From NCBI RefSeq assembly GCF_054482525.1, contig NZ_CM137006.1: a DNA stretch of 64,000 nucleotides. The stretch is one strand, 5' to 3'. The stretch's first letter is position 1. Each line of letters starts with the position of its first letter. The notes under the pieces were generated by a model, which worked only from the letters and a program-made list of their open reading frames with translations, ran no database searches and was not told where the DNA came from. The position numbers and the translations under genes are program-made. This document shows, piece by piece, positions 1 through 47,482 of this stretch.

Positions 1-1022
1 TCATGCAGCATCAACCCTAATGCCACCCCGACAAACACTGCCGGGAAGATTCGCCCACCGCGAAAGCCACTGGCGGCAGCAACGACCAGGGCGGCAAGTT
101 TAATTACCGCCAGCAAAAAGTAATCGCTGGTGCTGAAAGCCTGATTTGCCACCATCTGCTGCATCTCATCCAGCCCTTTAAACAGCGAAACTGGTCCACC
201 CATAACCCCCAGAATACCGAGAATAAATCCGCCAATACCCAGCACGAGCACCGGATTTTTCATTTGATGCATCATCGCGTGCAACCGTGGTAAGCACCAT
301 ACGGCGACCATCCCTGCTGCGATGGCAATCGCCGCGACAATTGCACCGCTGAGAATATCGGTCATTTCCATTTTTCCGTAATGCGCAATGGGCAGTGAAA
401 AATGGGGATGGAAAAATAATCCGGTAGTAAGTGCACCAGCTGCTGCCGCCATTAACGGCGCAAAAAGACGATCCCATAGCGGAACTTCACTACTACCATT
501 TAAGGTTTGCGAAAATATCAACGCCGCCGCAACAGGTGTGCCAAACAGTGCGCCGATGGTGCCGGCAGAGGCTAAAATAGTCCACTCCATTCGGTTGACG
601 CGCGGTAACAGACGAGCGCCAATGGCAACCGCAAGGGCGATATTGACGGTCATGATCGGATGTTCCGGCCCCAGGCTGACGCCGCCAGCAAGACCGAGAA
701 TTAATGCTACGATAAGTCCAGGTAGCGCAGAGGGCGGAACCGGTGCGCCGATCAGCGGTTCACAGGCGGGGTCTGGTCCGGCATGACCCTGGCTGAAACG
801 GATAACCAACCCCACCGCAATACCCGTTAGCGTTAATACACCGATGATCCAGAGGGGGGAATCCTGGGCTATCCCCAGAGTTCCCGGCAGTCGTTGCCAG
901 AGCAAATTCTGTAATACCGAGGCGATTTTCATCACCACAATCAGAATAAGACTGGACGCAATCCCAATTGCCACGGCGGGGAGCGATAATAACAACATGG
1001 TTCTGGCTCGCGGATGGAGCAT
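1..1022 (-). CDS. yfeO: YfeO, ClC-family putative ion-transport protein (partial; C-terminus lies beyond window start)
   Basis: Reverse-strand translation from ATG (complement of 1020-1022) reads [24 protein letters not shown]...; open to the window edge, so absent from the ORF track. Divergent from glk as in K-12. Confidence 0.85.
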
Positions 1023-1225
1023 GTTCTATTCCTTATGCGGGGTCAGATACTTAGTTTGCCCAGCTTGCAAAAAGGCATCGCTGCAATTGGTGCTGAAACG
1101 ATAAAGTAATTGTGTGACCCAGATCGATATTTACAGGGAGCCTGCCTTTCCGGCGTTGTTGTTATGCCCCCAGGTATTTACAGTGTGAGAAAGAATTATT
1201 TTGACTTTAGCGGAGCAGTTGAAGA

Positions 1226-2191
1226 ATGACAAAGTATGCATTAGTCGGTGATGTGGGCGGCACCAACGCACGTCTTGCTCTGTGTGATATTGCCAGTGGT
1301 GAAATCTCGCAGGCTAAGACCTATTCAGGGCTTGATTACCCCAGCCTCGAAGCGGTCATTCGCGTTTATCTTGAAGAACATAAGGTCGAGGTGCAAGACG
1401 GCTGTATTGCCATTGCTTGCCCAATTACCGGTGACTGGGTGGCAATGACCAACCATACCTGGGCGTTCTCAATTGCCGAAATGAAAAAGAATCTCGGTTT
1501 TAGCCATCTGGAAATTATTAACGATTTTACCGCTGTATCGATGGCGATCCCGATGCTGAAAAAAGAGCATCTGATTCAGTTTGGTGGCGCAGAACCGGTC
1601 GAAGGTAAGCCTATTGCGGTTTACGGTGCCGGAACGGGGCTTGGGGTTGCGCATCTGGTCCATGTCGATAAGCGTTGGGTAAGCTTGCCAGGCGAAGGCG
1701 GTCACGTTGATTTTGCGCCGAATAGTGAAGAAGAGGCCATTATCCTCGAAATACTGCGTGCAGAAATTGGTCATGTTTCGGCAGAGCGCGTGCTTTCTGG
1801 TCCTGGGCTGGTGAATTTGTATCGCGCGATTGTGAAAGCCGACAACCGCCTGCCAGAAAATCTCAAGCCAAAAGATATTACCGAACGTGCGCTGGCTGAC
1901 AGCTGCACCGATTGCCGCCGCGCGTTGTCGCTGTTTTGCGTCATTATGGGCCGTTTTGGCGGCAATCTGGCGCTCAATCTCGGGACATTTGGCGGCGTGT
2001 TTATTGCGGGTGGTATCGTGCCGCGCTTCCTTGAGTTCTTCAAAGCCTCTGGTTTCCGTGCCGCATTTGAAGATAAAGGGCGCTTTAAAGAATATGTCCA
2101 TGATATTCCGGTGTATCTCATCGTCCATGACAATCCGGGCCTTCTTGGTTCCGGTGCACATTTACGCCAGACCTTAGGTCACATTCTGTAA
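1226..2191 (+). CDS. glk: Glucokinase
   Basis: 321 aa ORF; N-terminal [18 protein letters not shown]/glucokinase ATP-binding motif. Confidence 0.96.
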
Positions 2192-2204
2192 ATCCTTCCT
2201 GTTA

Positions 2205-2235
2205 TATCGGGAGGTAACTCTCCCGATAATCTTTT
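2205..2235 (+). terminator. Rho-independent terminator-like hairpin after glk
   Basis: tatcggga...tcccgata stem (2205-2228) followed by atctttt. Confidence 0.5.
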
Positions 2236-2409
2236 AAATCATACAGTTAATTCAATTTTCCTTTGTGTCCCCTCACAAGGCCGACCTGCGTCACACTTCC
2301 GTACAGCGGGATTAATTCTCCAGTAAATGCATTATTTGTCTGGTAACGGCGATTTGTTTTGCACGTTCATAATTTCACTCGTCAACTATCACCGAACGAG
2401 GAATTAATG

Positions 2410-2736
2410 ATGAGTAAGAAACTGATTGCCTTATGTGCCTGCCCAATGGGCCTGGCTCACACCTTTATGGCCGCTCAGGCGCTGGAAGAAGCGGCGGTAG
2501 AAGCAGGCTATGAAGTAAAAATTGAAACCCAGGGTGCGGACGGTATCCAGAACCGTCTGACGGCGCAGGATATCGCCGAAGCAACCATCATCATCCACTC
2601 CGTGGCAGTTACCCCGGAAGATAACGAACGTTTCGAATCACGCGACGTTTATGAAATCACTTTGCAGGACGCAATTAAAAACGCTGCGGGCATCATCAAA
2701 GAAATCGAAGAGATGATTGCCTCTGAACAACAGTAA
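2410..2736 (+). CDS. fryB: PTS fructose-like EIIB component
   Basis: 108 aa from the second of two adjacent ATGs (MSKKLIALCACPMGLAHTFMAAQ...), active-site Cys in a PTS IIB-like context; track ORF 2359-2736 extends upstream. Confidence 0.85.
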   Translation: MSKKLIALCACPMGLAHTFMAAQALEEAAVEAGYEVKIETQGADGIQNRLTAQDIAEATIIIHSVAVTPEDNERFESRDVYEITLQDAIKNAAGIIKEIEEMIASEQQ

Positions 2737-2757
2737 TATTCGACAGGGATAATTGTT

Positions 2758-4005
2758 ATGGCCATTAAAAAACGCAGTGCAACCGTTGTGCCTGGCGCAT
2801 CCGGTGCGGCAGCGGCAGTTAAGAATCCGCAGGCCTCTAAAAGCAGCTTCTGGGGTGAACTCCCGCAGCATGTGATGTCAGGGATTTCACGCATGGTGCC
2901 GACCTTAATTATGGGCGGTGTGATCCTCGCTTTCAGCCAGCTGATTGCTTATAGCTGGCTTAAAATTCCTGCTGATATCGGCATCATGGATGCTCTTAAT
3001 AGCGGGAAATTCTCCGGTTTCGACCTCTCCTTACTGAAATTTGCCTGGCTGTCGCAATCCTTCGGCGGCGTGTTGTTTGGTTTCGCCATTCCGATGTTTG
3101 CTGCATTTGTGGCGAACTCTATCGGTGGCAAACTGGCGTTCCCGGCTGGTTTTATCGGCGGCTTGATGTCTACCCAGCCGACGCAACTGCTGAACTTCGA
3201 TTCCAGCACGATGCAATGGGCGACCTCTTCGCCGGTGCCGTCCACCTTCATTGGTGCGCTGATTATTTCTATCGTTGCCGGTTACCTTGTGAAGTGGATG
3301 AACCAGAAAATCCAGTTACCGGATTTCCTGTTAGCGTTCAAAACCACATTTTTGCTACCGATTCTTTCCGCCATATTTGTCATGCTGGCGATGTACTACG
3401 TCATCACCCCGTTTGGTGGCTGGATCAACGGCGGTATCCGTACCGTGCTGACTGCCGCAGGTGAGAAGGGCGCGCTGATGTACGCGATGGGGATCGCCGC
3501 GGCGACAGCAATCGACCTTGGTGGCCCAATCAACAAAGCAGCTGGTTTCGTTGCCTTCAGCTTTACCACGGACCACGTATTACCGGTCACCGCACGTTCC
3601 ATCGCTATTGTTATTCCGCCGATTGGTCTGGGTCTGGCGACCATTATTGACCGTCGTTTAACCGGCAAACGCCTGTTCAACGCTCAGCTTTATCCGCAGG
3701 GTAAAACCGCCATGTTCCTGGCCTTTATGGGGATCAGTGAAGGTGCGATTCCGTTTGCACTGGAAAGCCCCATCACCGCCATTCCGTCCTATATGGTCGG
3801 CGCGATTGTCGGCTCAACCGCTGCAGTCTGGCTGGGCGCAGTGCAATGGTTCCCGGAATCCGCTATCTGGGCATGGCCACTGGTCACTAACCTGGGCGTC
3901 TATATGGCGGGGATCGCGCTGGGAGCAGTCATTACTGCGCTGATGGTGGTGTTCCTGCGTCTGATGATGTTCCGCAAAGGCAAATTGTTAATCGATAGCC
4001 TGTAA
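2758..4005 (+). CDS. fryC: PTS fructose-like EIIC permease
   Basis: 415 aa polytopic membrane protein, IIC-like. Confidence 0.9.
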
Positions 4006-4019
4006 GAAGGACAATCCTG

Positions 4020-5105
4020 ATGACATTACTCGCTTCGCTGCGCGACTGGCTTAAGGCGCAACAACTGGATGCGGTGCTTCTCTCCTCACGGCAGAACAAA
4101 CAGCCGCATCTGGGGATCTCCACCGGATCAGGCTATGTGCTGATTAGCCGTGAAAGTGCGCACATTCTGGTGGACTCGCGCTATTACGCGGATGTAGAAG
4201 CCCGCACGCAAGGTTACCAGCTGCATTTGCTTGACGCGACGCACAAGCTTACAACCATCGCCAGGCAAATCATTGCCGATGAGCAGTTGCAAACGCTCGG
4301 TTTTGAGGGCCAGCAGGTGAGTTGGGAAACCGCGCACTGCTGGCAGTCTGAACTCAATGCGAAACTGGTTAGCGCCACGCCGGATGTGCTGCGGCAAATC
4401 AAAACGCCAGAGGAGGTGGAGAAAATCCGCCTCGCCTGTGGGATTGCCGATCGTGGTGCGGAGCATATTCGCCGCTTTATTCAGGCGGGGATGAGCGAGC
4501 GCGAGATAGCCGCTGAACTGGAGTGGTTTATGCGCCAGCAGGGCGCAGAAAAAGCCTCTTTTGACACCATTGTCGCCAGCGGCTGGCGTGGGGCGCTGCC
4601 GCACGGTAAAGCCAGCGACAAGATTGTTGCAGCGGGCGAGCTTGTCACTCTTGATTTTGGTGCGCTCTATCAGGGGTACTGCTCTGATATGACGCGCACC
4701 TTGCTGGTGAATGGCGAAGGGGTGAGCGCCGAATCTCACCCGCTGTTTAACGTCTATCAAATTGTCCTGCAGGCACAGCTCGCAGCAATCTCCGCGATTC
4801 GCCCCGGCGTGCGCTGCCAGCAGGTTGACGACGCCGCGCGCCGGGTGATTACCGAGGCTGGATTTGGTGACAATTTCGGTCATAACACCGGTCATGCTAT
4901 CGGTATTGAAGTCCATGAGGATCCGCGTTTTTCACCGCGGGACACCACGACGCTACAGCCAGGCATGTTACTGACCGTGGAGCCGGGGATTTATTTGCCA
5001 GGGCAAGGGGGCGTGCGCATCGAGGATGTTGTGCTGGTCACCCCGCAAGGCGCAGAAGTGCTCTACGCCATGCCGAAAACAGTGTTGCTCACGGGAGAGG
5101 CATAA
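4020..5105 (+). CDS. ypdF: Xaa-Pro aminopeptidase (M24 family)
   Basis: 361 aa; pita-bread metallopeptidase motifs ([19 protein letters not shown]). Confidence 0.9.
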
Positions 5106-6142
5106 TGGATTTATCGTTATTAAAAGCGTTGAGCGAGGCAGATGCGATCGCCTCCTCGGAACAGGAAGTGCGGCAGATCCTGCTGGAAGAAGCGGATCGC
5201 CTGCAAAAAGAAGTGCGATTTGACGGCCTGGGATCGGTGCTGATCCGCCTCAATGAATCGACAGGTCCGAAGGTGATGATCTGTGCGCATATGGATGAAG
5301 TGGGATTTATGGTGCGCAGCATCTCCCGCGAAGGGGCGATCGATGTGTTGCCGGTTGGCAATGTACGCATGGCTGCCCGCCAGCTTCAGTCGGTGCGTAT
5401 CACTACCCGTGAAGAGTGCAAAATTCCAGGCCTGCTTGACGGCGACCGGCAGGGGAATGACGTCAGCGCCATGCGCGTGGACATTGGTGCGCGCTCGTAT
5501 GACGAAGTGATGCAGGCGGGAATTCGTCCAGGCGATCGCGTCACCTTTGATACCACTTTTCAGGTTCTCCCTCACCAGCGGGTGATGGGGAAAGCTTTTG
5601 ATGACCGCCTCGGTTGTTATCTGCTGGTGACGTTACTGCGCGAGCTGCACGACGCCGAACTGCCTGCGGAAGTGTGGCTGGTGGCCAGCTCCAGCGAAGA
5701 GGTCGGCTTACGCGGCGGGCAAACCGCTACCCGCGCGGTGTCACCGGACGTTGCGATTGTGCTGGATACCGCCTGCTGGGCGAAAAACTTTGATTATGGC
5801 GCGGCTAACCATCGCCAGATTGGTAACGGGCCGATGCTGGTGTTAAGCGACAAGTCGCTGATTGCGCCGCCAAAACTTACCGCGTGGATTGAAACCGTGG
5901 CGGCAGAAATTGGCGTGCCGTTACAGGCAGATATGTTCAGCAACGGCGGCACGGACGGTGGAGCGGTGCATTTAACCGGCACTGGCGTACCCACAGTGGT
6001 GATGGGGCCTGCCACCCGCCACGGACATTGCGCCGCATCGATTGCCGATTGCCGTGACATTTTGCAGATGCAGCAACTTTTATCTGCCCTTATTCAACGT
6101 CTTACGCGTGAGACGGTTGTTCAACTGACGGATTTCAGATGA
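5105..6142 (+). CDS. ypdE: M42-family aminopeptidase
   Basis: 345 aa; start overlaps ypdF stop (translational coupling). Confidence 0.9.
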
Positions 6143-6166
6143 TCTCCTGATTAACCCGGAGCGGTT

Positions 6167-8662
6167 ATGCTAACGATTCAATTTCTCTGTCCTCTGCCTA
6201 ACGGTCTGCATGCTCGTCCGGCGTGGGAGCTTAAAGAACAGTGCAGCCAGTGGCAAAGCGAAATCACCTTCATCAACCATCGCCAGAACGCAAAGGCAGA
6301 TGCCAAAAGCTCGCTGGCGCTGATTGGCACCGGCACTTTATTTAATGACAGTTGCAGCCTGAACATTAGCGGCAGCGATGAAGAGCAGGCGCGGCGCGTG
6401 CTGGAAGAGTACATCCAGGTGCGCTTTATCGACAGCGACAGCATTCAGCCGACGCAGGCAGAACTGACGGCGCATCCGCTGCCGCGTTCATTAAGCCGTC
6501 TGAATCCTGATTTACTGTACGGCAATGTGCTGGCAAGCGGCGTCGGCGTGGGTACGCTGACCCTGTTACAGAGCGACAGCCTCGACAGTTATCGGGCCAT
6601 CCCGGCCAGTGCGCAAGACTCCACCCGGCTGGAGCACAGCCTGGCAACGCTTGCCGAGCAACTGAACCAGCAGCTGCGTGAGCGTGACGGCGAAAGCAAA
6701 ACTATCCTCAGCGCCCATTTGTCGCTGATTCAGGATGATGAATTTGCAGGCAATATCCGTCGCCTTATGGCAGAACAGCATCAGGGGCTGGGGGCGGCGA
6801 TCATCAGCAATATGGAGCAGGTTTGCGCCAAACTATCTGCTTCTGCCAGCGATTATCTGCGCGAGCGGGTCAGCGACATTCGCGATATCAGCGAACAGTT
6901 GCTGCATATCACCTGGCCGGAACTGAAGCCGCGCAACAATCTGGTGCTGGAAAAACCGACTATTCTGGTGGCCGAGGATTTAACCCCAAGCCAGTTTTTG
7001 AGCCTCGATTTAAAAAATCTTGCGGGCATGATTCTGGAGAAAACCGGGCGCACCTCGCATACACTGATTCTGGCCCGTGCCTCGGCGATCCCGGTACTGA
7101 GTGGCTTGCCGCTGGATGCGATCGCGCGCTATGCCGGGCAACCGGCAGTGCTTGACGCCCAGTGCGGCGTGCTGGCGATTAACCCTGATGACGCGGTGAG
7201 CGGTTATTATCAGGTCGCGCAGACGCTGGCGGATAAACGCCAAAAACAACAGGCGCAGGCCGCCGCGCAGCTGGCCTATTCCCGTGATAACAAGCGTATT
7301 GATATTGCGGCGAATATCGGCACCGCTCTGGAAGCGCCAGGCGCGTTTGCCAACGGCGCGGAAGGTGTCGGGCTGTTCCGTACCGAAATGCTCTATATGG
7401 ATCGCGACAGCGCGCCGGACGAGCAGGAGCAATTTGAAGCCTACCAGCAGGTGCTACTGGCGGCGGGCGACAAGCCGATTATCTTCCGCACGATGGACAT
7501 CGGCGGCGATAAAAGCATTCCTTATCTGAATATTCCCCAGGAAGAGAACCCGTTCCTCGGCTATCGCGCGGTACGTATTTACCCGGAATTTGCTGGCCTG
7601 TTCCGCATTCAACTGCGGGCCATTTTGCGCGCCGCCAGTTTCGGCAACGCCCAGTTGATGATCCCAATGGTTCACAGCCTCGATCAGATCTTATGGGTGA
7701 AGGGCGAGATCCAAAAAGCGATCGTTGAGCTTAAGCGCGATGGCCTGCGTCATGCAGAGACGATTACGCTGGGTATCATGGTGGAAGTGCCGTCGGTGTG
7801 CTACATCATCGACCACTTCTGCGATGAGGTCGATTTCTTCAGTATCGGTTCTAACGATATGACCCAGTATCTGTATGCGGTCGATCGTAATAACCCGCGC
7901 GTATCGCCGCTGTATAACCCGATTACGCCATCGTTCCTGCGCATGTTGCAGCAGATTATTACCACTGCGCATCAGCGCGGAAAATGGGTAGGTATTTGCG
8001 GTGAACTGGGCGGTGAAAGTCGTTATCTGCCGCTACTGCTTGGGCTGGGCCTGGATGAGCTGAGTATGAGTAGCCCGCGCATTCCGGCGGTGAAAAGCCA
8101 GCTTCGTCAACTGGATAGCGAGGCGTGTCGGGAACTGGCGCGTCAGGCGTGTGAATGTCGCAGCGCGCAGGAAATTGAAGCGTTACTCACCGCCTTTACG
8201 CCGGAAGAAGACGTTCGCCCGCTGCTGGCGCTGGAGAATATCTTCGTTGATCAGGCCTTTAGTAATAAAGAGCAGGCGATCCAGTTCCTGTGCGGCAACC
8301 TTGGTGTTAACGGGCGTACTGAACATCCGTTTGAGCTGGAAGAAGATGTCTGGCAGCGGGAAGAGATTGTCACTACTGGCGTTGGTTTTGGCGTGGCGAT
8401 CCCGCACACCAAATCTCAGTGGATCCGTCATTCCAGTATCAGCATTGCCCGGCTGGTGAAACCGGTTGACTGGCAGTCAGAGATGGGCGAAGTCGAACTG
8501 GTGATCATGCTGACGCTGGGTGCTAACGAAGGGATGAACCATGTGAAAGTCTTCTCGCAGCTGGCGCGCAAACTGGTGAATAAAAACTTCCGCCAGTCGC
8601 TGTTCGCCGCGCAAGATGCGCAAAGCATCCTGACGCTGCTGGAAACGGAATTAACCTTCTGA
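6167..8662 (+). CDS. fryA: Multiphosphoryl transfer PTS protein (HPr-like, EI-like and IIA-like domains fused)
   Basis: 831 aa; N-terminal HPr-like GLHARPA motif, central EI PEP-utilising domain, C-terminal IIA-like domain. Confidence 0.92.
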   Translation: MLTIQFLCPLPNGLHARPAWELKEQCSQWQSEITFINHRQNAKADAKSSLALIGTGTLFNDSCSLNISGSDEEQARRVLEEYIQVRFIDSDSIQPTQAELTAHPLPRSLSRLNPDLLYGNVLASGVGVGTLTLLQSDSLDSYRAIPASAQDSTRLEHSLATLAEQLNQQLRERDGESKTILSAHLSLIQDDEFAGNIRRLMAEQHQGLGAAIISNMEQVCAKLSASASDYLRERVSDIRDISEQLLHITWPELKPRNNLVLEKPTILVAEDLTPSQFLSLDLKNLAGMILEKTGRTSHTLILARASAIPVLSGLPLDAIARYAGQPAVLDAQCGVLAINPDDAVSGYYQVAQTLADKRQKQQAQAAAQLAYSRDNKRIDIAANIGTALEAPGAFANGAEGVGLFRTEMLYMDRDSAPDEQEQFEAYQQVLLAAGDKPIIFRTMDIGGDKSIPYLNIPQEENPFLGYRAVRIYPEFAGLFRIQLRAILRAASFGNAQLMIPMVHSLDQILWVKGEIQKAIVELKRDGLRHAETITLGIMVEVPSVCYIIDHFCDEVDFFSIGSNDMTQYLYAVDRNNPRVSPLYNPITPSFLRMLQQIITTAHQRGKWVGICGELGGESRYLPLLLGLGLDELSMSSPRIPAVKSQLRQLDSEACRELARQACECRSAQEIEALLTAFTPEEDVRPLLALENIFVDQAFSNKEQAIQFLCGNLGVNGRTEHPFELEEDVWQREEIVTTGVGFGVAIPHTKSQWIRHSSISIARLVKPVDWQSEMGEVELVIMLTLGANEGMNHVKVFSQLARKLVNKNFRQSLFAAQDAQSILTLLETELTF

Positions 8663-8664
8663 CG

Positions 8665-9522
8665 TTAGCCCTGAAAACGGGCGCTGTACTCTCCCGGCGT
8701 CAGGCCAAACTGACGCCGGAAAACGCGACAAAAATAGTCGCTGTCCGGAAAACCGCAACGCTGTGCCACTTCATGAATCGACAGATGATATTTCTGCAAA
8801 ATCATCCTTGCCTTTGCCATTCGTACCCAGCGAACATACTCGATAAAACGCATTGTTCCATGCTGAGCAAACAGTTTTGACAGATGATTGGGCGTGATAT
8901 TAAAAAACTGAGCCACGCTCTCGCGGGTGAGCGGCTGGGCATAATTATCCTGAACCCAGTTACAAATGCTGTGATAGAGAAAATCGCTGCGCGGCTGCGA
9001 ATTGCCCGGCGGCATATTCACCACGTTACGGCAAAGATGCAGCAAACTTAACACCAGTGGCTGAATGATATTCTGCTCCAGCGGCGAACGGCTAAGATGG
9101 GTGAGGGCGGTAAGCATCGCTTCACCTTCACCGCGTTGCAGGCTGGGAAGCTGGATCTGGCGGGCAGGATGCAACAACGACGTGGTACGGCTATCGTAAA
9201 ATGATAAGCCAAGCCAGGTCGGTGCGAACACCAGGCTTAACAGCATCACCGGTTTGTTGTTGATCGGTAAATTAGCCGCGCGCGCTGGAATAAACAGCAT
9301 TTCTCCTTCCACCATACGTTGCTGCTTTGCTTCCAGCAGATTGCCGTATTCGCCGCGTAGCACGATATCCAGACGGGGAAAATCAATACATAAACTGCCC
9401 ACTGGCAATGAAGCAGGCTGGCTGGCAAACCAGACGCGCCCCAGTAGTTGCGGGTTAAGCACCAGGCCGCTGAGCAGATCGGCGAAAAATTGTTGATCGG
9501 CGGGCAAGCCTGGTGCTTTCAT
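8665..9522 (-). CDS. ypdC: AraC-family transcriptional regulator
   Basis: 285 aa with C-terminal AraC-type HTH; convergent with fryA, stops 2 bp apart. Confidence 0.9.
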   Translation of the reverse strand: MKAPGLPADQQFFADLLSGLVLNPQLLGRVWFASQPASLPVGSLCIDFPRLDIVLRGEYGNLLEAKQQRMVEGEMLFIPARAANLPINNKPVMLLSLVFAPTWLGLSFYDSRTTSLLHPARQIQLPSLQRGEGEAMLTALTHLSRSPLEQNIIQPLVLSLLHLCRNVVNMPPGNSQPRSDFLYHSICNWVQDNYAQPLTRESVAQFFNITPNHLSKLFAQHGTMRFIEYVRWVRMAKARMILQKYHLSIHEVAQRCGFPDSDYFCRVFRRQFGLTPGEYSARFQG

Positions 9523-9534
9523 GAAAGTTCCCGA

Positions 9535-10269
9535 TTAAAGATGCATTAACTGGCGGAATTCTTTAACTTTGCTGCGGCTGACCGGCACTTCAAAATCCAG
9601 ATCTTTCAGCCGCAGAATATAGGTGTTATTAAACCACGGTTCGATCTCGCGGATTTTGTTCAGATTGACACAAAATGAGCGATGGCAGCGGAAAAAATGC
9701 GACGGCGGCAGCTTGCTGCAAAACTCGGTAATGTTCATCGGCATTACGTAGGATTCACGCCGCGTATAGACAAAGGTCATTTTCTCGTGCGCTTCGGCGT
9801 AATAGATATCGTTAATTGGCGTGACAATGATTCGCTCATCTTTCACCAGATTAATGGTGTCATTCTCACGCGTTACCGTCGTGGCAGGCGTACTGCTGGT
9901 CTGCTGTTGTTGCCAGGCCGCTTCCAGTTTTTGCAGCATCCCGGTAATGCGTGACTCCTGATACGGTTTGAGAATGTAGTCAAACGCTTCCAGTTCAAAT
10001 GCTTCTACCGCATGTTCTTTCCACGCGGTGATGAACACAATAAACGGTTTATGGGCGAACTGGCTGATGTTTTGCGCCAGCAACACGCCATCCAGCGACG
10101 GAATATTGATATCCAGAAAAATGGCGTCGACGCGGTTATGCTGCAAAAACTTCAACACGTCCAGACCGTCGTCAAAGGTGCCGACAATCTCCATCTGGCT
10201 GTGCTCTTTAATTAGCCAGCTCAGTTCCTGTTGTGCCAGGAATTCGTCTTCAACAATGATGACTTTCAC
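9535..10269 (-). CDS. ypdB: LytTR-family response regulator of the YpdA/YpdB two-component system
   Basis: Receiver domain (KVIIVEDEFLAQ...) plus LytTR output domain; track ORF extends to 10287, but the likely start is the GTG giving MKVIIVEDE (244 aa). Confidence 0.85.
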   Translation of the reverse strand: MKVIIVEDEFLAQQELSWLIKEHSQMEIVGTFDDGLDVLKFLQHNRVDAIFLDINIPSLDGVLLAQNISQFAHKPFIVFITAWKEHAVEAFELEAFDYILKPYQESRITGMLQKLEAAWQQQQTSSTPATTVTRENDTINLVKDERIIVTPINDIYYAEAHEKMTFVYTRRESYVMPMNITEFCSKLPPSHFFRCHRSFCVNLNKIREIEPWFNNTYILRLKDLDFEVPVSRSKVKEFRQLMHL

Positions 10270-10283
10270 AATATCACTCCGGC

Positions 10284-11981
10284 TCAAAGCAATAACGTAG
10301 CCTGTGAGGCGACTGGGGTGCGTTGGTTAGGAATGTAAAACGCAATTTCCGTTCCTGGTTCCAGGCGGCGGATATGCAGCCCCTCGCCATACAATAACTT
10401 CACGCGATGATGGACATTCAGCAGACCAATTTTATTGCCCGGCATTTCGTTCGCTTCGACCCGCTCAATGACTTTTGGATCGATGCCGTGCCCGGTGTCT
10501 CGCACCGCAATGCGTACCCGATTACCGCACTCTGCAACGCTGATGGTGACAACGCCTTTACCTTTGCAAGGCTGGATACCGTGGACAATGGCGTTTTCCA
10601 CCAACGGCTGGATCAGCAGGCTGGGAATGCAGCAATTCACCTCTTCATCAATATCATAGATAACCGTCAGCTTGTCGCCAAAGCGGGCCTGCTCAATGGC
10701 AATATAGTCTTTAATTTGATACAGCTCTTTTTTGATATCGATTTGCTCATCGTCTTTTAATTCAATGTTATAGCGCAGATAACGCGACAGATTAAAGATC
10801 AGCTGGCGAGCGGTATCTGGATTCAGACGGATTGACGATGAAATAGCGTTCAGAGCGTTAAACAGAAAATGGGGATTAATTTTGCTTTGCAGGGCGCGAA
10901 GCTCTGCCTTATTTGCCATTTCACGTAACTGCTCGGCGCGTGAAACCTCCAGTTGCGTGGAGATGATTTGCGACAGACCGACAGCCATTTCCTGTAATGA
11001 CGAGGTTATCTGATGCGCGTGGCAGTAGTAAATTTTCAGCGTTCCGGTCACAACGCCTTTCTCCCACAATGGGATCACCAGCATGGAATGAATCTCTGGT
11101 GTGCGGTGGGCTTCATCATTGTTTTTAATGATGATTTTTCCGTAATTCATCGCCTGACGGGTAGTCGGGCTAATGAAGTCATCGCCATTCTGATAGTTAT
11201 GTTCACCCACGCCAACATAGGCCAGCACATGATCGGTATTAGTAATCGCCACCGCATCGGCGTGAATGTCATCGCGGATAATTTCGCAGACCTTGCGTAA
11301 TGACTCGCTATTGACATGGCGAAACAGCGGCAGCGTTTTGTTGGCAATATCCAGCGCCAGCTTGGCCTGCCGCGCGGCGCTGGCCTCCTTTTCGCCCTCA
11401 ACGCTTTGCACCAGCAGCACAATAAAGCCGATACAGACGCTGCCGAGGATCATTGGAATTCCGATTTTAGAGACGATATCGATCCCCAACGCGGTAGTTG
11501 GTGCCCAGACAATCACCAGAATCATGGTCAACGTTTCACACAACATGCCGCCGAGAATACCGACGCGCCAGCGCTGTGCTTTAGGGATTTTCAGGTTGAT
11601 CCAGCCCGATATACAACCCGCCAGAATGCTGGTGATAAAGCAGGGGATCGCCGTCACGCCGCCGATATCAATTAAATACCGGTGAATACCCGCAATCACG
11701 CCGGTAATGATGCCTACCCACGGGCCAAACAGAATTCCGCCTGACATCACCGCGATAATACGTACGTTCACCAGCGAGCCTTCTACGGGAACGCCGGACC
11801 AGGTGCTAAACAGGGCGAACAGCGAGAAAATGGCGGTAACGGCGAGCAGCTCTTTCGGTGAGTGTGCCGACTTGTGCAACAGTTCGCGAAACAGGCGGAT
11901 ACGGATGAGAAAGAACAGGCAGATAAGCATTAACGCTGCCCGATCGAAGACCGCCAGCAGCATGTTGAATATTTCGTGCAC
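10284..11981 (-). CDS. ypdA: Sensor histidine kinase (5TM-LytS and GAF-type)
   Basis: 565 aa; N-terminal multi-TM region, C-terminal HATPase; sits directly upstream of ypdB (track ORFs overlap by 4 bp). Confidence 0.92.
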
Positions 11982-12357
11982 GGGTGACTCTGAATAAGGA
12001 TTAAACCTCTATGATAGGTAACCTGAAGGCTGATGACCAGCAGGCCGTTTTTGAGGAAAAACCACAATTTTAAAAGGGGATTGAAAGATAAATGGTGTAT
12101 TAGCAATGCATCTCTTGATAATGCATATCTGGTTAGTAAATTTATTGAAATTATAATGTTAATAAAATGAGTGGTATTTTTCTTGTTAGCGCAGATAAAT
12201 TTCCTGTTTTTGAAGTGGAGTTCCTCATTTAAAGCCATTGATAAAAATGTTCTAAAACGCTGGACAGACAGAAATTAATCAGGCTATTTTCAAAACAGCC
12301 ACCATCGTGGCAGCGTCGCTCGGACGGTCCGGGCGCTAACGTTAATCTGAGGAAATT

Positions 12358-13596
12358 ATGGCTGACACTCGCCCTGAACGTCGCTTTACGCGCATTGATC
12401 GTCTCCCGCCCTACGTTTTTAATATTACCGCTGAACTGAAAATGGCTGCGCGTCGGCGCGGCGAAGATATTATCGATTTCAGTATGGGTAACCCGGACGG
12501 TGCGACTCCGCCGCATATCGTCGAAAAATTATGTACGGTGGCCCAGCGCCCGGACACGCATGGTTACTCCACGTCACGCGGCATTCCGCGGCTACGTCGC
12601 GCCATTTCCCGCTGGTATCAGGATCGCTACGACGTTGAAATCGACCCGGAATCAGAAGCTATCGTCACTATTGGTTCGAAAGAGGGACTGGCGCATCTGA
12701 TGCTGGCGACGCTGGATCATGGTGACACGGTGCTGGTGCCGAATCCAAGCTACCCCATTCATATTTATGGCGCGGTGATTGCCGGGGCGCAGGTACGCTC
12801 AGTGCCGCTGGTGGAAGGTGTCGATTTCTTCAACGAACTGGAACGCGCCATTCGCGAAAGTTATCCGAAACCGAAGATGATGATCCTCGGCTTCCCGTCG
12901 AATCCAACCGCGCAATGCGTGGAGCTGGAGTTCTTCGAAAAGGTTGTGGCGCTGGCGAAACGCTACGATGTGCTGGTGGTCCATGACCTGGCCTATGCCG
13001 ATATCGTCTACGATGGCTGGAAAGCGCCGTCAATCATGCAGGTGCCGGGTGCACGCGATGTGGCGGTCGAGTTCTTTACGCTGTCGAAAAGCTATAACAT
13101 GGCGGGCTGGCGTATCGGCTTTATGGTTGGCAACAAAACGCTGGTCAGCGCCCTGGCACGTATTAAAAGCTATCACGATTACGGCACCTTTACGCCGTTG
13201 CAGGTGGCAGCGATTGCGGCGCTGGAGGGAGATCAACAGTGCGTGCGCGACATTGCTGAACAGTACAAACGCCGCCGTGATGTACTGGTAAAAGGGCTGC
13301 ATGAAGCGGGCTGGATGGTCGAAATGCCGAAGGCTTCGATGTATGTCTGGGCGAAAATCCCGGAACCGTATGCTGCCATGGGCTCGCTGGAATTTGCTAA
13401 GAAGCTGCTGAACGAAGCGAAGGTCTGTGTCTCTCCGGGGATTGGCTTTGGCGACTACGGCGACACGCATGTTCGCTTTGCACTGATTGAAAACCGCGAT
13501 CGTATTCGCCAGGCGATTCGTGGAATTAAAGCGATGTTCCGTGCCGACGGTTTACTACCCGCCAGCAGCAAACATATTCACGAAAACGCGGAATAA
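12358..13596 (+). CDS. alaC: Glutamate-pyruvate aminotransferase (class I PLP aminotransferase)
   Basis: 412 aa; [15 protein letters not shown]-lysine motif. Confidence 0.93.
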
Positions 13597-15955: not shown

Positions 15956-16097
15956 AGAAAGTTATCCTGAAAATGGTTCACTGAGAACCTACGATGTTAT
16001 GGCTGTATTTACATTTAATTAATCAGTATTTACATCGATATAATAAATGACATCTCTTTGTGGTATATAAGAATAGTTCTCTGTGACAGGAAGCATA

Positions 16098-16115
16098 TTC
16101 CTACAATTGTAAGAC
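16098..16115. promoter_or_regulatory. EvgA-box-like 18-bp inverted repeat upstream of yfdX
   Basis: TTCCTACA-AT-TGTAAGAC; a second weaker copy at 16136-16153 (TAACTACA-AC-TGTAAGAT). Confidence 0.5.
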
Positions 16116-16250
16116 TAAAATACTTCTTGCGATAATAACTACAACTGTAAGATAACCCTTTCAAAATGAGCGTTGCTCTCTGATTTCTCATTTCATGCTC
16201 ACCCAATATGATGGCGGCGTTTTCTAAAACTGTTAAAGAATGAGGTAAGT

Positions 16251-16883
16251 ATGAAACGTTTAATTATGGCTACGATGGTCACAGCAGTTCTGGCATCTTC
16301 AACTGTATGGGCTGCTGATAATGCACCGGTAGCGGCACAACAGCAAACTCAGCAAGTTCAGCAAACCCAGAAAACGGCAGCAGCAGAGCGTATCTCTGAA
16401 CAAGGTTTATATGCGATGCGTGACGTGCAGGTAGCGCGCCTGGCTCTGTTTCATGGCGATCCGGAAAAGGCAAAAGAACTGACCAATGAAGCTTCAGCTT
16501 TGTTGTCAGATGACAGTACCGAATGGGCAAAGTTCGCTAAGCCAGGTAAAAAGACCAATGTCAATGATGACCAATATATTGTCATTAATGCATCTGTCGG
16601 AATTTCTGAGAGTTATGTAGCGACACCCGAAAAAGAAGCCGCGATAAAAATTGCCAACGAAAAAATGGCGAAAGGGGATAAAAAGGGCGCAATGGAAGAG
16701 CTGCGCCTGGCCGGTGTTGGCGTAATGGAAAACCAATATCTGATGCCGCTCAAACAGACTCGTAATGCACTTGCTGATGCGCAGAAACTGCTTGATAAAA
16801 AGCAATACTACGAGGCAAACCTGGCGCTTAAAGGTGCGGAAGATGGAATCATCGTCGATAGCGAAGCTCTGTTTGTGAACTAA
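16251..16883 (+). CDS. yfdX: YfdX periplasmic protein (EvgA-induced)
   Basis: 210 aa with signal peptide. Confidence 0.9.
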
Positions 16884-16939
16884 CGCTGACAGGCAGTATA
16901 TTGAGGTAAAGGATTTAACTCCCTCCAGCCGACAATTTT

Positions 16940-16972
16940 TTATGACCACAATACGACAGGTTGTGGTCATAA
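16940..16972 (+). terminator. Inverted repeat after yfdX (possible terminator)
   Basis: ttatgaccacaa / ttgtggtcataa 12-bp perfect arms; tail only weakly T-rich. Confidence 0.35.
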
Positions 16973-17126
16973 AATTATTTGGCGCTCGCGGTTCTATAAA
17001 CTCGCATTTTATCTTCCTCAAAGTAAACCGCAATAATCCCGTGTCATCACAAATCATTTATTATGTTATGTTTTATGGTACGCTTTAAAAGGCGTAATCA
17101 TACCCTTACTTGTAAATCACCGGCGC

Positions 17127-17144
17127 TTCTTACAGTTGTAAGAA
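17127..17144. promoter_or_regulatory. Perfect EvgA-box palindrome upstream of frc
   Basis: TTCTTACA-GT-TGTAAGAA, a perfect 18-bp inverted repeat about 250 bp upstream of the frc start. Confidence 0.6.
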
Positions 17145-17395
17145 TAACATCACAAATGTCGCGGCTCTCTCTGATTACCGCGAACCAATATTTATCATAT
17201 TCTTCTTTTCGTCCTCACTACTTACCATGCAGAAAGGAATTGGAAGTGGCGATGAAATGATTTTCAGCACTTGATACAGGAATTTAAAAATATCGAGTGC
17301 AGCTACGACGATATTTTGCGGATTATTTATAGAGGGCGTTATGCCTTAAATAAACGCTAAATTAACATATATTTAATTAACTAATAGGTATTGCT

Positions 17396-30119: not shown

Positions 30120-31448
30120 TTAGCGGCCTTTTGCCAGATATTGCTCCATCTCTTCTTCCGGCACCATTCCACCTCCCGTCGCCCACACCAGATGAGTGGC
30201 ATTACGCAGTTGTTCTGCGCTGAAACCGTGCATCTGTTGGTAACTTACTGATGCGCACACGCGCTGAGGCCCGGCCATACCCGCCAGTGCCGAAGGTTCA
30301 AGACGAATGCCTTCTTCCTGCGCCAGCCAGCCAAGCATGTCATACATGGTTTGATCGCTAAGGGTATAGAAGCCATCCAGCAGACGCTCCATTGCCCGCC
30401 CGACAAAGCCTGATGCGCGACCAACTGCAAGGCCATCCGCTGCGGTAAGGTTGTCGATACCAATATCCTGAACAGAAATCTGATCGTGTAATCCAGTATG
30501 GACGCCTAACAACATACAAGGGGAGTGCGTTGGTTCGGCAAAAAAGCAGTGAACATGATCGCCAAACGCCAGTTTAAGTCCGAATGCGACGCCACCAGGA
30601 CCACCGCCAACACCACACGGCAGATAGACAAACAGAGGGTTATCAGCATCGACGATACGACCTTGCTCGGCAAATTGCGCTTTAAGACGCTGGCCAGCGA
30701 CGGAATACCCAAGGAACAACGTGCGGGAATTCTCGTCATCAATAAAGAAACAGTTCGGGTCAGACTGCGCTGCTTTACGTCCTTCCTCGACGGCAACACC
30801 ATAATCTTGCTCATATTCCACGACCGTAACGCCATGGCTGCGCAGTTTCGCTTTTTTCCATGCCCGGGCATCAGCAGACATATGCACTGTCACCTTAAAG
30901 CCAATGCGGGCGCTCATTATGCCGATTGATAACCCCAGATTTCCGGTTGAGCCCACAGCAATGCTGTATTGACTAAAGAACTGTTTAAACTCCGGAGACA
31001 GCAGTTTGCTGTAGTCATCTTCAGGCGTCAGCAACCCCGCTTCCAGAGCCAGTTTTTCTGCGTGTGCCAGGACTTCATAAATCCCGCCGCGTGCTTTTAT
31101 GGAGCCGGAAATGGGCAAATGGCTATCTTTTTTCAGTAACAGTTGCCCGCTGATCGGTTGTTGATATTCCTTTTCCAGCCGTTTTTGCATAGCTGGAATG
31201 GCAACCAGTTCTGATTCAATAATCCCCCCAGTAGCAGCAGTTTCAGGAAATGCTTTTGCCAGATAGGGTGCAAAACGGGATAAGCGCGCATGGGCGTCCT
31301 GAACATCCTGTTCGGTCAGGCCAACATAAGGTAAACCTTCAGCCAATGAGGTCGTGCCAGGATTAAACCAGGTGGTTTCTTTAAGAGCAACCAGATCCTT
31401 TACCAACGGATACTGGGCGATGAGCGAGTTCATTTTAGCGTTTTCCAT
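30120..31448 (-). CDS. dsdA: D-serine dehydratase (PLP-dependent)
   Basis: 442 aa, full length. Confidence 0.95.
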
Positions 31449-31465
31449 AGTACGTCTCTTTGCGC

Positions 31466-31696
31466 TTAGATGATAAATGACAGCAGGAATGTGCCCGCCA
31501 GAGCGACGACTGAAGCGATAAATGTCGCTGTCGTATAGTATTTAAATGTTTCATTGAGCGTAGCGCCGCAATATTGCTTCGCCAGCCAGAAAAGCGAGTC
31601 CGTAACGATCGTGCAGCCAATTGCACCTGAACCGATAGCAATCGTAAAAATTTCCGGGCTGATGTCGGGATACAGCGCCAGCACAATGATCCATAT
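31466..31696 (-). pseudogene. dsdX: 3' remnant of dsdX (GntP-family D-serine permease), truncated at the csc island junction
   Basis: Only about 75 C-terminal codons of a permease-like frame remain, ending 18 bp before dsdA; the frame hits a stop upstream at about 31697, and no dsdC follows. Confidence 0.7.
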
Positions 31697-31926
31697 TTAT
31701 ATTTTCTTCTCCAGATTGGCGATGCCAGTTGGCATGTTTTACCTACTTGCCTACATGGTTACTCGTTGGCGAGAACAGAGGCGGAATTGGGTACAATTGT
31801 CCGGGAATTATTGTTATTTTTTATTGTATTGCCGTGTCGGGTTATAGGGCGTTGAGAATATCGTTGGATCTCGCCAGTGACGTCTGTTTCTGCTACAGTG
31901 CCCGTTTTACGGCAAACGGCTTGGGT

Positions 31927-32922
31927 ATGGCTTCATTAAAGGATGTCGCACGCCTGGCGGGAGTGTCGATGATGACAGTCTCCCGGGTGATGCATAATGC
32001 AGAATCTGTGCGTCCTGCAACGCGTGACCGCGTATTGCAGGCAATCCAGACCCTGAATTATGTTCCTGATCTTTCCGCCCGTAAGATGCGCGCTCAAGGA
32101 CGTAAGCCGTCGACTCTCGCCGTGCTGGCGCAGGACACTGCTACCACTCCTTTCTCTGTTGATATTCTGCTTGCCATTGAGCAAACCGCCAGCGAGTTCG
32201 GCTGGAATAGTTTTTTAATCAATATTTTTTCTGAAGATGACGCTGTCCGCGCGGCACGTCAGCTGCTTGCCCACCGTCCGGATGGCATTATCTATACTAC
32301 AATGGGGCTGCGACATATCACGCTGCCTGAGTCTCTGTATGGTGAAAATATTGTATTGGCGAACTGTGTGGCGGATGACCCAGCGTTACCCAGTTATATC
32401 CCTGATGATTACACTGCACAATATGAATCAACACAGCATTTGCTCGCGGCGGGCTATCGTCAACCGTTATGCTTCTGGCTACCGGAAAGTGCGTTGGCAA
32501 CAGGGTATCGTCGGCAGGGATTTGAGCAGGCCTGGCGTGATGCTGGACGAGATCTGGCTGAGGTGAAACAATTTCACATGGCAACAGGTGATGATCACTA
32601 CACCGATCTCGCAAGTTTACTCAATGACCACTTCAAATCTGGCAAACCAGATTTTGATGTTCTGATATGTGGTAACGATCGCGCAGCCTTTGTCGCTTAT
32701 CAGGTTCTCCTGGCGAAGGGGGTACGTATCCCGCAGGATGTCGCCGTAATGGGCTTTGATAATCTGGTTGGCGTCGGGCATCTGTTTTTACCGCCGCTGA
32801 CCACAATTCAGCTTCCACATGACATTATCGGGCGGGAAGCTGCATTGCATATTATTGAAGGTCGTGAAGGGGGAAGAGTGACGCGGATCCCTTGCCCGCT
32901 GTTGATCCGTTGTTCCACCTGA
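31927..32922 (+). CDS. cscR: LacI-family sucrose repressor
   Basis: 331 aa from MASLKDVARLAGVSMMTVSRV (HTH); track ORF extends 66 codons upstream. Confidence 0.9.
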   Translation: MASLKDVARLAGVSMMTVSRVMHNAESVRPATRDRVLQAIQTLNYVPDLSARKMRAQGRKPSTLAVLAQDTATTPFSVDILLAIEQTASEFGWNSFLINIFSEDDAVRAARQLLAHRPDGIIYTTMGLRHITLPESLYGENIVLANCVADDPALPSYIPDDYTAQYESTQHLLAAGYRQPLCFWLPESALATGYRRQGFEQAWRDAGRDLAEVKQFHMATGDDHYTDLASLLNDHFKSGKPDFDVLICGNDRAAFVAYQVLLAKGVRIPQDVAVMGFDNLVGVGHLFLPPLTTIQLPHDIIGREAALHIIEGREGGRVTRIPCPLLIRCST

Positions 32923-32929
32923 TATTATG

Positions 32930-46996: not shown

Positions 46997-47482
46997 ATGC
47001 AAGTTTTTATCATGCGTCACGGCGACGCAGCCCTCGATGCCGCCAGTGATTCGGTTCGTCCTCTGACTACTAACGGTTGTGACGAATCTCGCCTGATGGC
47101 GAACTGGCTGAAAGGTCAAAAAGTGGAAATCGAACGCGTTCTGGTGAGCCCGTTCCTGCGAGCCGAGCAAACACTGGAAGAAGTAGGGGATTGTCTGAAC
47201 CTGCCTTCCAGTGCAGAAGTTCTGCCGGAGTTAACACCCTGCGGCGATGTTGGTCTGGTCAGTGCCTATTTGCAGGCGTTGACCAATGAAGGTGTTGCTT
47301 CGGTACTGGTGATCTCCCACTTACCCTTAGTCGGGTATCTGGTTGCCGAGTTATGTCCGGGCGAAACGCCGCCTATGTTTACCACCTCGGCCATTGCCAG
47401 CGTAACGCTTGATGAAAGCGGAAACGGCACATTCAATTGGCAGATGAGCCCATGTAATCTGAAGATGGCAAAGGCGATTTAA
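46997..47482 (+). CDS. sixA: Phosphohistidine phosphatase SixA
   Basis: 161 aa; N-terminal RHG motif (MQVFIMRHGDA). Confidence 0.93.
   Translation: MQVFIMRHGDAALDAASDSVRPLTTNGCDESRLMANWLKGQKVEIERVLVSPFLRAEQTLEEVGDCLNLPSSAEVLPELTPCGDVGLVSAYLQALTNEGVASVLVISHLPLVGYLVAELCPGETPPMFTTSAIASVTLDESGNGTFNWQMSPCNLKMAKAI

Follow-up and report, generated by a model that had tools for sequence, protein, structure and literature searches.

In Escherichia coli, MngA is annotated as a phosphotransferase system (PTS) for mannosylglycerate, and the gene for the alpha-mannosidase MngB adjoins that of the transporter. E. coli also has exactly three M42-family proteins (PMC3511314). All three, YpdE, FrvX (5856-6926 of locus L002) and SgcX (8531-9652 of locus L003), are encoded inside orphan PTS operons. 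The subject here is the operon that contains ypdE, namely fryB-fryC-ypdF-ypdE-fryA or fry, which lies near the start of a 64,000-nucleotide stretch of E. coli DNA (contig NZ_CM137006.1). The whole stretch is termed the window, and coordinates are positions in it, taken from the RefSeq annotation of the identical record and from our own translation. As of 2017 FryA was without an assigned function and the substrate of FryABC was unknown (PMC5364489), and in a 2023 review fryB and fryC are only 'fructose-like' (PMC10305011). An earlier, sequence-only reading of the stretch held the substrate to be still undefined, and a literature search found no paper assigning one; nor did it find a functional study of fry, of the adjacent regulator gene ypdC or of the related CD2485-CD2488 cassette of C. 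difficile, or any account of the wider cassette treated below. The same reading called the locus not novel but functionally under-explained, a fair description: fry is one of several orphan PTS in E. coli, is present in essentially every strain under strong purifying selection and has no assigned substrate. The locus itself is known; new here are the extent of the module, a candidate for its operator and one for its regulator, and its placement in a conserved PTS-peptidase-lyase cassette.

The operon is encoded on the + strand. fryB (2410-2736; 108 amino acids; Pfam PF02302) specifies a fructose-family EIIB and fryC (2758-4005; 415 amino acids; PF02378) the EIIC membrane permease. Next comes ypdF (4020-5105; 361 amino acids; PF01321 and PF00557, NCBIfam NF007310) for an M24B metallo-aminopeptidase of the Xaa-Pro type, then ypdE (5105-6142; 345 amino acids; PF05343) for an M42 metallo-aminopeptidase of the TET type, and finally fryA (6167-8662; 831 amino acids), whose product is a fusion of HPr, Enzyme I (EI) and type 2 EIIA with five Pfam domains in order. 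The AraC-family regulator gene ypdC (8665-9522, - strand; 285 amino acids; Pfam HTH_18 / HTH_AraC) converges on fryA. Gene content and coordinates had been given correctly in the sequence-only reading, matching annotation, translation and Pfam domains, and Pfam bears out both the operon make-up and the order within the fused HPr-EI-IIA protein. The start/stop overlap of the two peptidase genes, also pointed out there, is a one-base overlap of the ypdF stop with the ypdE start in the sequence TAATG at 5103-5107.

Relatives of FryC and the nature of the cargo

A word-indexed protein search with FryC leads only to close relatives, all 120 among the matches listed being enterobacterial and at least 64% identical, and an exhaustive representative search gives only 54 clusters below E = 1e-30. 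With an alignment of the FryC clade as query, a scan of a genome collection yielded 80 loci, taken with 10-kb flanks, of which 36 are enterobacterial and 44 come from outside the Enterobacteriaceae. Their genes were labelled by open reading frame (ORF) calls and phmmer and then by tblastn, and the counts quoted are those of the tblastn census. [In the GC-rich loci L052, L058, L062, L070, L065 and L066, long antisense ORFs mask the M24 and M42 genes in the ORF calls; tblastn recovers them.]

The 44 clade members outside the Enterobacteriaceae are 50–67% identical to FryC and occur in Clostridia (including C. difficile, Enterocloster and Hungatella), Negativicutes, Fusobacteria, Streptococcus suis and Rahnella. 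Their loci divide into 27 of a peptidase type and 17 of a GH38 type, with no overlap and none left over. Each of the 27 has a YpdF-like M24 gene on the same strand 29–175 nt after the IIC gene, and none of the 17 has one. A second metallopeptidase of the M42 family is present in 15 of the peptidase-type loci and a PepV/Sapep-like M20 in 11, never together with M42; both are absent from the GH38 type (0/17 in each case). A PatB-family C-S lyase is found in 23/27 against 0/17, the four peptidase-type loci without it being three from Rahnella and one on a truncated contig. Type I mannose-6-phosphate isomerase (PMI) is encoded at 6/27 and 0/17. Conversely, a GH38 alpha-mannosidase directly follows IIC in all 17 loci of the second type and in none of the 27, and no enterobacterial fry locus (0/36) has GH38.

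The Firmicutes operons are headed by a PRD/Mga-type regulator with an EIIA domain, and the cassette assignments are backed by Pfam and NCBIfam. The catalytic metal ligands show no variation among the cassette peptidases. The cassette M20 proteins match the Sapep/PepV families, and their scores against NF052477 ('Cys-Gly-3M3SH dipeptidase'), 181–217 bits, are far below its cut-off of 1025; the cassette lyase scores 307–345 bits against TIGR04350. The fry operon of E. coli has the M24 gene after IIC and the second metallopeptidase, but the lyase is absent from it. By its gene content fry appears to belong to this widespread uncharacterised PTS-peptidase-lyase cassette. The pairing of sugar transport with peptide hydrolysis had been called unusual; the pairing is real, but cassettes in Clostridia, Negativicutes and Rahnella show that it is not an oddity of E. 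coli. In C. difficile the PTS genes CD2486-CD2488 and pmi (CD2491) appear in a map of glucose- and CcpA-controlled carbon metabolism (PMC3510511). More distant relatives of FryC, at about 40% identity, are fused MngA-like IIABC proteins encoded next to GH38, GH13 and glycerate kinase, which is a mannosylglycerate or glucosylglycerate pattern.

The constant position of M24 right after IIC, the interchange of M42 with M20 and the strict alternation with GH38 argue that the peptidases act on the cargo of the permease. From this, fry may quite possibly be a YpdC-activated PTS for a hexosyl conjugate of an amino acid or short peptide. Because of the GH38 genes, the PMI and the MngA-like outgroup, mannose is a candidate for the hexose of such a conjugate, though a tentative one. 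A larger proposal, about which we are doubtful, is that fry represents the enterobacterial branch of an undescribed cross-phylum pathway, in which a glycosylated amino acid or peptide would be imported by a PTS and processed by two metallopeptidases, and a PatB/MalY-type beta-lyase would replace the glycosidase. The substrate of that pathway would most plausibly be an O-mannosyl-Ser/Thr or S-glycosyl-Cys peptide.

A simpler view is that fry is a plain PTS for fructose or another simple hexose or ketose, and that the aminopeptidases are housekeeping enzymes which share its transcript and act independently on cytoplasmic peptides. PGAP and NCBIfam do name FryB and FryC 'PTS fructose transporter', and all the PTS domains belong to the Fru family (TC 4.A.2). 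However, FryC scores 157.2 bits against the NCBIfam fructose-IIC subfamily model TIGR01427, just under the cut-off of 157.55, with 52 bits against PF02378 (cut-off 30.7), and is only 27–29% identical to FruA (27%), FrwC, MngA and FrvB. It thus appears to be a member of the Fru superfamily in a separate clade that is not near any characterised permease. A fructose-specific operon of the fruBKA type has a linked 1-phosphofructokinase, but neither this enzyme nor any other kinase is encoded among the fry genes of the 80 loci (80/80), and a PfkB-family kinase gene occurs near only 3 of the 27 peptidase-type loci, either 4 ORFs upstream or 6 downstream of IIC and outside the run from IIA to the lyase. 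M24 directly after IIC in the 27 distant loci and in all complete enterobacterial loci, and the strict alternation of the peptidase set with a glycosidase, are both left unexplained by hitch-hiking, and the mutual substitution of M42 and M20 without co-occurrence indicates that they carry out a required step. A plain-sugar PTS is therefore considered unlikely.

The conjugate-importing PTS would be an inducible and self-contained catabolic cassette, working as follows. On sensing an inducer, YpdC would bind the direct repeat at 2319-2347 and activate a promoter with only a -10 element, possibly with CRP upstream. FryA would take phosphate from phosphoenolpyruvate (PEP) and pass it internally from EI to HPr to IIA, and then to Cys11 of FryB. 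FryC would import a small hexose conjugate, its aglycone an amino acid or short peptide and its hexose perhaps mannose, which would be phosphorylated on entry. In the cytoplasm the broad M42 enzyme YpdE and the Xaa-Pro M24 enzyme YpdF would trim the peptide part. In the ancestral cassette, which persists in Clostridia, Negativicutes and one Enterobacterales genome, a pyridoxal-phosphate-dependent beta-lyase of the PatB/MalY type would then split the phospho-sugar from the remaining Ser or Cys by beta-elimination, giving pyruvate and ammonia, and a mannose-6-phosphate isomerase would pass the sugar to glycolysis. Release of the sugar phosphate by a lyase is, within the general model, a rather doubtful element. 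The E. coli operon would have lost the lyase, in which case MalY or MetC could act in trans.

That an enterobacterial operon can hold the complete set is seen in an Enterobacterales metagenome-assembled genome (L052), where the order is AraC-IIB-IIC-M24 (61%)-M42 (65%)-(HPr-EI-IIA)-PatB. The lyase encoded there (16030-17205) is 65% identical to E. coli MalY (K-12, L099 4958-6130), a divergence about the same as that of the other fry proteins of L052. One possibility is that MalY serves as the lyase of the Fry pathway, either relocated or acting in trans. In K-12, malY sits behind the PTS gene malX in the orphan malI-malX-malY unit. The nearby alaC was also considered as a displaced cassette lyase gene and rejected, AlaC being unrelated to the L052 lyase, at only 23% identity, and alaC being absent at the fry modules of the rna-rnk site described below.

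Several considerations weigh against a glycoconjugate substrate. Its nature is deduced wholly from the genes nearby. In E. coli the operon encodes neither a lyase nor a glycosidase, isomerase or kinase, which leaves the fate of the sugar part unexplained, and PMI is linked in only the minority of cassettes counted above. PatB and MalY are characterised as C-S and not C-O lyases; their cleavage of an O-glycosyl-serine would be an extrapolation. We know of no PTS that carries a peptide conjugate. Nor have the GH38-type sister operons been characterised, and FryC is only 27% identical to the MngA of E. coli. A rough neighbour-joining tree does place enterobacterial FryC beside cassettes of Lachnospiraceae and Ruminococcaceae with M24-M42-PatB, but it has no support values and mixes the two operon types. 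Distances between the cassette genes correlate, but a shared species phylogeny would also yield such a correlation, and little weight is put on it. Finally, a study cited in PMC3511314 (Zheng et al. 2005) reported that plain peptides are cut in vitro by both YpdE and YpdF. The two enzymes therefore need no glycosylated substrate, which also speaks for the plain-sugar alternative.

A variant cassette is of interest for a different type of linkage. In L004, a metagenome contig of 34.5% GC, positions 313-7936 encode RidA, an AlaDh/PNT-family dehydrogenase, an RpiR/SIS regulator, a fused IIABC, M24, M20 and a PatB-like lyase, with IIC 53% identical to FryC and IIB 66% identical to FryB. RidA would fit a lyase that releases aminoacrylate, and the dehydrogenase hints at an opine-like aglycone. 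The cargo could accordingly be thought of as an N-linked sugar-amine adduct (Amadori or Heyns fructosyl- or glucosyl-peptides) or an opine-like compound, from which the peptidases would free the glycated amino acid. PTS systems for fructoselysine and glucoselysine (gfr) exist, and the sequence-only reading had itself proposed glycosylated peptide or amino-sugar substrates. Against an N-linked adduct, no cassette has a deglycase of the SIS, FrlB, GfrE/F or FraB type or an amadoriase, the beta-lyase would be without an obvious role, and with its alpha-amine glycated, an N-terminal residue is out of reach of an aminopeptidase. The GH38 of the sister operons, moreover, points to a glycosidic bond. 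An N-linked or opine-like substrate is for these reasons quite unlikely.

Should fry prove to take up a glycosylated amino acid or peptide, gut and urinary bacteria would have a new route for harvesting glycoprotein debris, one shared by E. coli with C. difficile, Enterocloster, Hungatella and other gut Clostridia. It would also explain the recurrence of M42 'peptidases' in PTS operons and give MalY, and perhaps malXY, frv and sgc, a first physiological context.

Extent of the module and state of its genes

The 13 kb at the start of the window are 100% identical to E. coli SCU-102, 19KM1776 and PCN033. Of 5426 complete E. coli genomes 5424 carry them, and in 5413 of those the match extends over 80% or more of the query. 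This part is E. coli core chromosome, as had been claimed from its sequence, and the locus is already known and annotated. Upstream lies the glucokinase gene glk (1226-2191, + strand; PF02685), with its own terminator. Downstream, on the - strand beyond ypdC, are ypdB (9535-10269) for a LytTR response regulator (Pfam receiver and LytTR) and ypdA (10284-11981) for a LytS-type kinase (Pfam 5TMR-LYT, GAF, His_kinase and HATPase), so that the annotation contains the convergent AraC regulator and LytS/LytTR system that had been described beside the operon. Beyond ypdA, alaC starts at 12358 on the + strand.

Not all of these neighbours travel with fry. In the enterobacterial loci M24 and M42 follow fryBC in 34 of 36, the remaining two being truncated contigs, and the EI fusion is visible in 32. 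A ypdC homolog stands beside the fry genes in 29 of those 32, at both of the chromosomal sites that the module occupies. One site is between glk and alaC. The other, between dcuC-rna and rnk, holds the same six-gene module in Superficieibacter, Enterobacter, Lelliottia, Pluralibacter and others. glk adjoins fry in only 17/36 loci, and ypdAB do so in only 11/32, from Escherichia, Citrobacter and Pseudocitrobacter. No ypdAB genes are next to fry-ypdC in Salmonella arizonae or diarizonae (where the arrangement is fry-ypdC-alaC), Superficieibacter, Enterobacter, Hafnia, Serratia, Lelliottia or Pluralibacter, nor at any rna-rnk-site locus. Because of this co-occurrence and the counts at the two sites, the functional unit is fryB-fryC-ypdF-ypdE-fryA together with ypdC; glk and ypdAB are lineage-specific neighbours. 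An Enterobacter-type fry-ypdC module with enterobacterial flanks, its FryC 74% identical to that of E. coli, also occurs in a record titled Chryseobacterium sp. 18061 (L043); the name is most likely an error that arose by contamination or mis-binning.

The stop codons of the convergent fryA and ypdC are separated by 2 bp (8660-8667). This leaves no space for a terminator, and read-through giving antisense transcription between operon and regulator seems unavoidable; it might serve as a feedback device. The junction is equally tight in other genera: among L034, L042 and L040 the two genes lie 3 bp apart in two loci and overlap by 4 bp in the third.

The proteins retain the catalytic motifs of their domains. 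FryB (71 bits to PF02302) has the phosphorylation motif C9-A-C11-P-M-G-L-A-H-T, with Cys11, and CAC(P/T)MGLAHTFM is invariant in 80/80 related loci; its identity to IIB of the Firmicutes cassettes is 70–76%. YpdF has Creatinase_N (PF01321, 67 bits) and Peptidase_M24 (PF00557, 245 bits) domains and the metal ligands D212, D223, H292, E321 and E335, invariant in all 27 distant cassette homologs, and its sequence matches the solved structure PDB 5CNX, 'Aminopeptidase YpdF'. YpdE scores 288 bits against PF05343 and has 1YLO as the structure of its Shigella ortholog; its metal-binding and catalytic residues H62, D166, E198, E199, D221 and H308 are invariant in FrvX, SgcX and 15 distant cassette homologs. 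Its dodecameric state is known from the literature (PMC3511314). In FryA, HPr spans residues 6–84, the N-terminal, mobile and PEP-binding domains of EI 119–650, and type 2 EIIA 687–826 (PF00359, 110 bits), with the motifs GLHARPA (the HPr histidine), GRTSHT and ICGELGG (the EI histidine and cysteine) and AIPHT (the IIA histidine) intact. The RefSeq/PGAP label for fryA, 'ptsP' and 'phosphoenolpyruvate--protein phosphotransferase', hides the HPr and IIA domains, and the symbol is misleading in that ptsP in E. coli K-12 nomenclature is the separate gene for EI-Ntr.

Since FryA brings an EI and an HPr with it, it is insulated from the general PTS, as are the PtsP-Npr and DhaM systems, and one may ask whether fry transports anything at all. 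Like PTS-Ntr or DhaM, FryA and FryB could form a regulatory phosphorelay that senses PEP, or an external ligand via FryC, and controls the peptidases or YpdC; the E. coli operon, after all, encodes no sugar-catabolic enzyme. Yet selection acts on the full-length IIC as strongly as on glk, the same IIB and IIC in Firmicutes use a separate IIA, the general PTS and a PRD/Mga-type activator, the standard layout for substrate-inducible transport, and sister operons pair a permease of the same clade with a glycosidase. Regulation as the sole task of fry is very unlikely.

The strength of selection was gauged by the ratio of nonsynonymous to synonymous substitution rates (dN/dS) against Escherichia whittamii, Citrobacter braakii, Salmonella diarizonae and Superficieibacter, and the values hold at dS >1. 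The ratio is 0.02–0.05 for fryB and fryC (0.03–0.05 for fryC), the same as for glk, 0.03–0.12 for ypdE and fryA, 0.13–0.18 for ypdF and 0.06–0.15 for ypdC. The fry genes are real, intact and under purifying selection. One could have taken fry for a cryptic or decaying remnant with no current function in E. coli, since no laboratory phenotype or inducer is known, the ancestral lyase is missing and fryC and ypdF are fused in some strains. [The fusion ORFs, of 657–688 amino acids with EIIC, Creatinase_N and M24 (P0080, P0082, P0112), are in some E. coli assemblies; they probably arose by mutation of the 14 bp between fryC and ypdF, and may be sequencing errors or real read-through variants.] The near-universal presence of the region with ORFs and catalytic residues intact, the dN/dS range of 0.02–0.18 and a promoter and operator conserved in 23/23 enterobacterial sequences make decay extremely improbable. 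In addition, a ypdE deletion mutant of UTI89 is attenuated in the mouse bladder, where it was outcompeted with a competitive index of 0.30 (PMC8767336), which suggests that in uropathogenic E. coli the pathway matters in the host. A 48-bp in-frame deletion in fryA was reported to improve survival after prolonged growth in LB (PMC5364489).

The fryB upstream region and its candidate regulator

The sequence-only reading had singled out 2240-2400 as the interval in which YpdB or YpdC might bind upstream of fryB, and this interval does contain a strongly conserved operator-like footprint. It emerged from an alignment of the 150–260 bp upstream of fryB in 23 enterobacterial sequences, which include Hafnia and Serratia. 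The block at 2317-2349 (+) aligns gap-free in 23/23 and is built on a direct repeat, TCCAGTAAA (2319-2327) and TCTGGTAAC (2339-2347), 20 bp from start to start. After it come 20 variable bases, and then the -10 box CATAAT (2368-2373, +; CATA[A/C]T in all genera), which is nearly invariant, so that the repeat ends 20 nt upstream of the -10. A position weight matrix made from the operator block scores 50.1 bits at 2317-2349, with the next best site in the 64-kb window at 11 bits, and gives a single strong match (27–46 bits) per locus in 29 loci, always upstream of fryB.

The alignment of the 23 sequences has no conserved -35 element upstream of CATAAT, and a consensus promoter scan finds no two-hexamer sigma-70 promoter at fryB. 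A -10 with no -35 fits a promoter that depends on an activator of the AraC type, and the promoter layout together with the co-inheritance of ypdC makes YpdC the likely activator. YpdC has both HTH_18 and HTH_AraC domains, and the putative direct-repeat half-sites lie upstream of the fryB -10. YpdC is probably the dedicated regulator and activator of fry, with 2317-2349 as its candidate binding site. Of the two regulators put forward, it is much the better supported. YpdAB is a pyruvate sensor whose published target is yhjX (PMC5552118), and ypdAB adjoin fry in only the 11/32 loci given above. Overproduction of CpxR was reported to raise ypdF 1.9-fold and fryA 1.5-fold (PMC2731931).

Further upstream, a block CCGAC..(C/A)(G/A)TCACA(C/T)TTC is conserved across genera at 2280-2299 (+), GTCACA(C/T)TTC being 2290-2299. 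Positions 2280-2295 may be read as a half-consensus CRP site, GCCGA-N6-TCACA, by comparison with the consensus TGTGA-N6-TCACA. A second CRP candidate, the inverted repeat TTTGTG-N6-CACAAG at about 2262-2279, was rejected for its wrong spacing and its lack of conservation outside Escherichia. Between glk and these elements is a terminator-like hairpin at 2205-2228 (+), TATCGGGAG-N6-CTCCCGATA followed by a T-rich tail, detected both by the terminator scan and as inverted repeat I2. It separates glk from the fry promoter region and is restricted to Escherichia, a different hairpin being present in other genera. With the exception of this hairpin, consensus promoter and terminator scans gave no more sites than expected from shuffled sequence, and Rfam identified no RNA elements in the region.

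A look-alike of the operator, CCAGTTAATGCATCTTTAATCGGGAAC, occurs at 9524-9556 (-), inside the 3′ end of ypdB and just upstream of the ypdC start, with 22/28 nt as in the fryB operator and 8.7–13.5 bits. It was considered as an autoregulatory YpdC site and set aside, being confined to Escherichia with nothing comparable in genera that lack ypdAB. The AT-rich divergent control region between ypdA and alaC has a tandem 15-nt repeat, AATGCATCTCTTGAT / AATGCATATCTGGTT, at 12105-12134, in which the words AATGCAT and TCTGGT of the fryB operator recur at a different spacing.

Elsewhere in the window, sucrose-utilisation genes lie next to dsdA at about 30120-37328, with dsdX represented only by a fragment (31466-31684, annotated partial). 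They comprise a LacI-type regulator (31927-32922), cscA (32930-34363), an 'aminoimidazole riboside kinase' (34579-35493) and an MFS transporter (35565-36812), and the block, which we take to be a known strain-variable island, adjoins tRNA-Arg (37257-37328). sixA, for a phosphohistidine phosphatase, is at 46997-47482; SixA has been associated with the removal of phosphate from a PTS-Ntr component, and no evidence of a link to fry was found.

Comparison with described systems

The putative fryB promoter resembles those of rhaBAD and araBAD, in which direct repeats of AraC-family half-sites extend into the -35 region, upstream of a good -10, with no -35 and a possible CRP site upstream; the fryB positions relative to the start are estimates.

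Within E. coli the frw cluster, ptsA(frwA)-frwCB-pflDC-frwD-yijO, is paralogous to fry, with identities of 45% for FryA and PtsA, 46% for FryB and FrwB, 29% for FryC and FrwC and 36% for YpdC and YijO. Here too the AraC regulator gene, yijO, converges on the 3′ end of the cluster; frwD and yijO overlap by 14 bp (L017 9467-9480), where fryA and ypdC are almost contiguous. The difference is that pyruvate-formate-lyase-like genes take the place of the peptidases, and the function of frw is likewise unassigned. The orphan PTS operons frvABXR and sgcXBCQAER share the M42 gene with fry; in BLASTP comparisons with YpdE, FrvX shows 35% identity and SgcX 32%, and both keep all six of its metal and catalytic residues. 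Unlike fry they have no M24 gene and no EI-HPr fusion, and their regulators, FrvR and SgcR, are different. SgcC is annotated as a putative PTS IIC, and both operons are uncharacterised.

The succession of a dipeptidase and a lyase has a described parallel. In Staphylococcus the Cys-Gly-3M3SH dipeptidase works with a PatB lyase on cysteine S-conjugates, uptake being by a peptide transporter with neither PTS nor sugar. The likeness to the cassette consists in the pairing of a PepV/Sapep-like M20 dipeptidase with a PatB-family beta-lyase; in the staphylococcal pathway the two act in turn on an amino-acid conjugate. E. coli fry differs in having M42 instead of M20, and no lyase in cis.

For the transport step the comparison is with MngA and MngB. 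FryC is only 27% identical to MngA, the IIA of fry is fused to EI and HPr and not to IIB and IIC, and fry has no glycosidase, its two peptidases occupying that position. Nonetheless MngA is a Fru-family PTS for a hexoside with a small acidic aglycone, 2-O-alpha-mannosyl-D-glycerate, which is split in the cytoplasm by a GH38 enzyme, and relatives of FryC at 40–62% identity are encoded directly beside GH38, the distant ones also beside GH13 and glycerate kinase.

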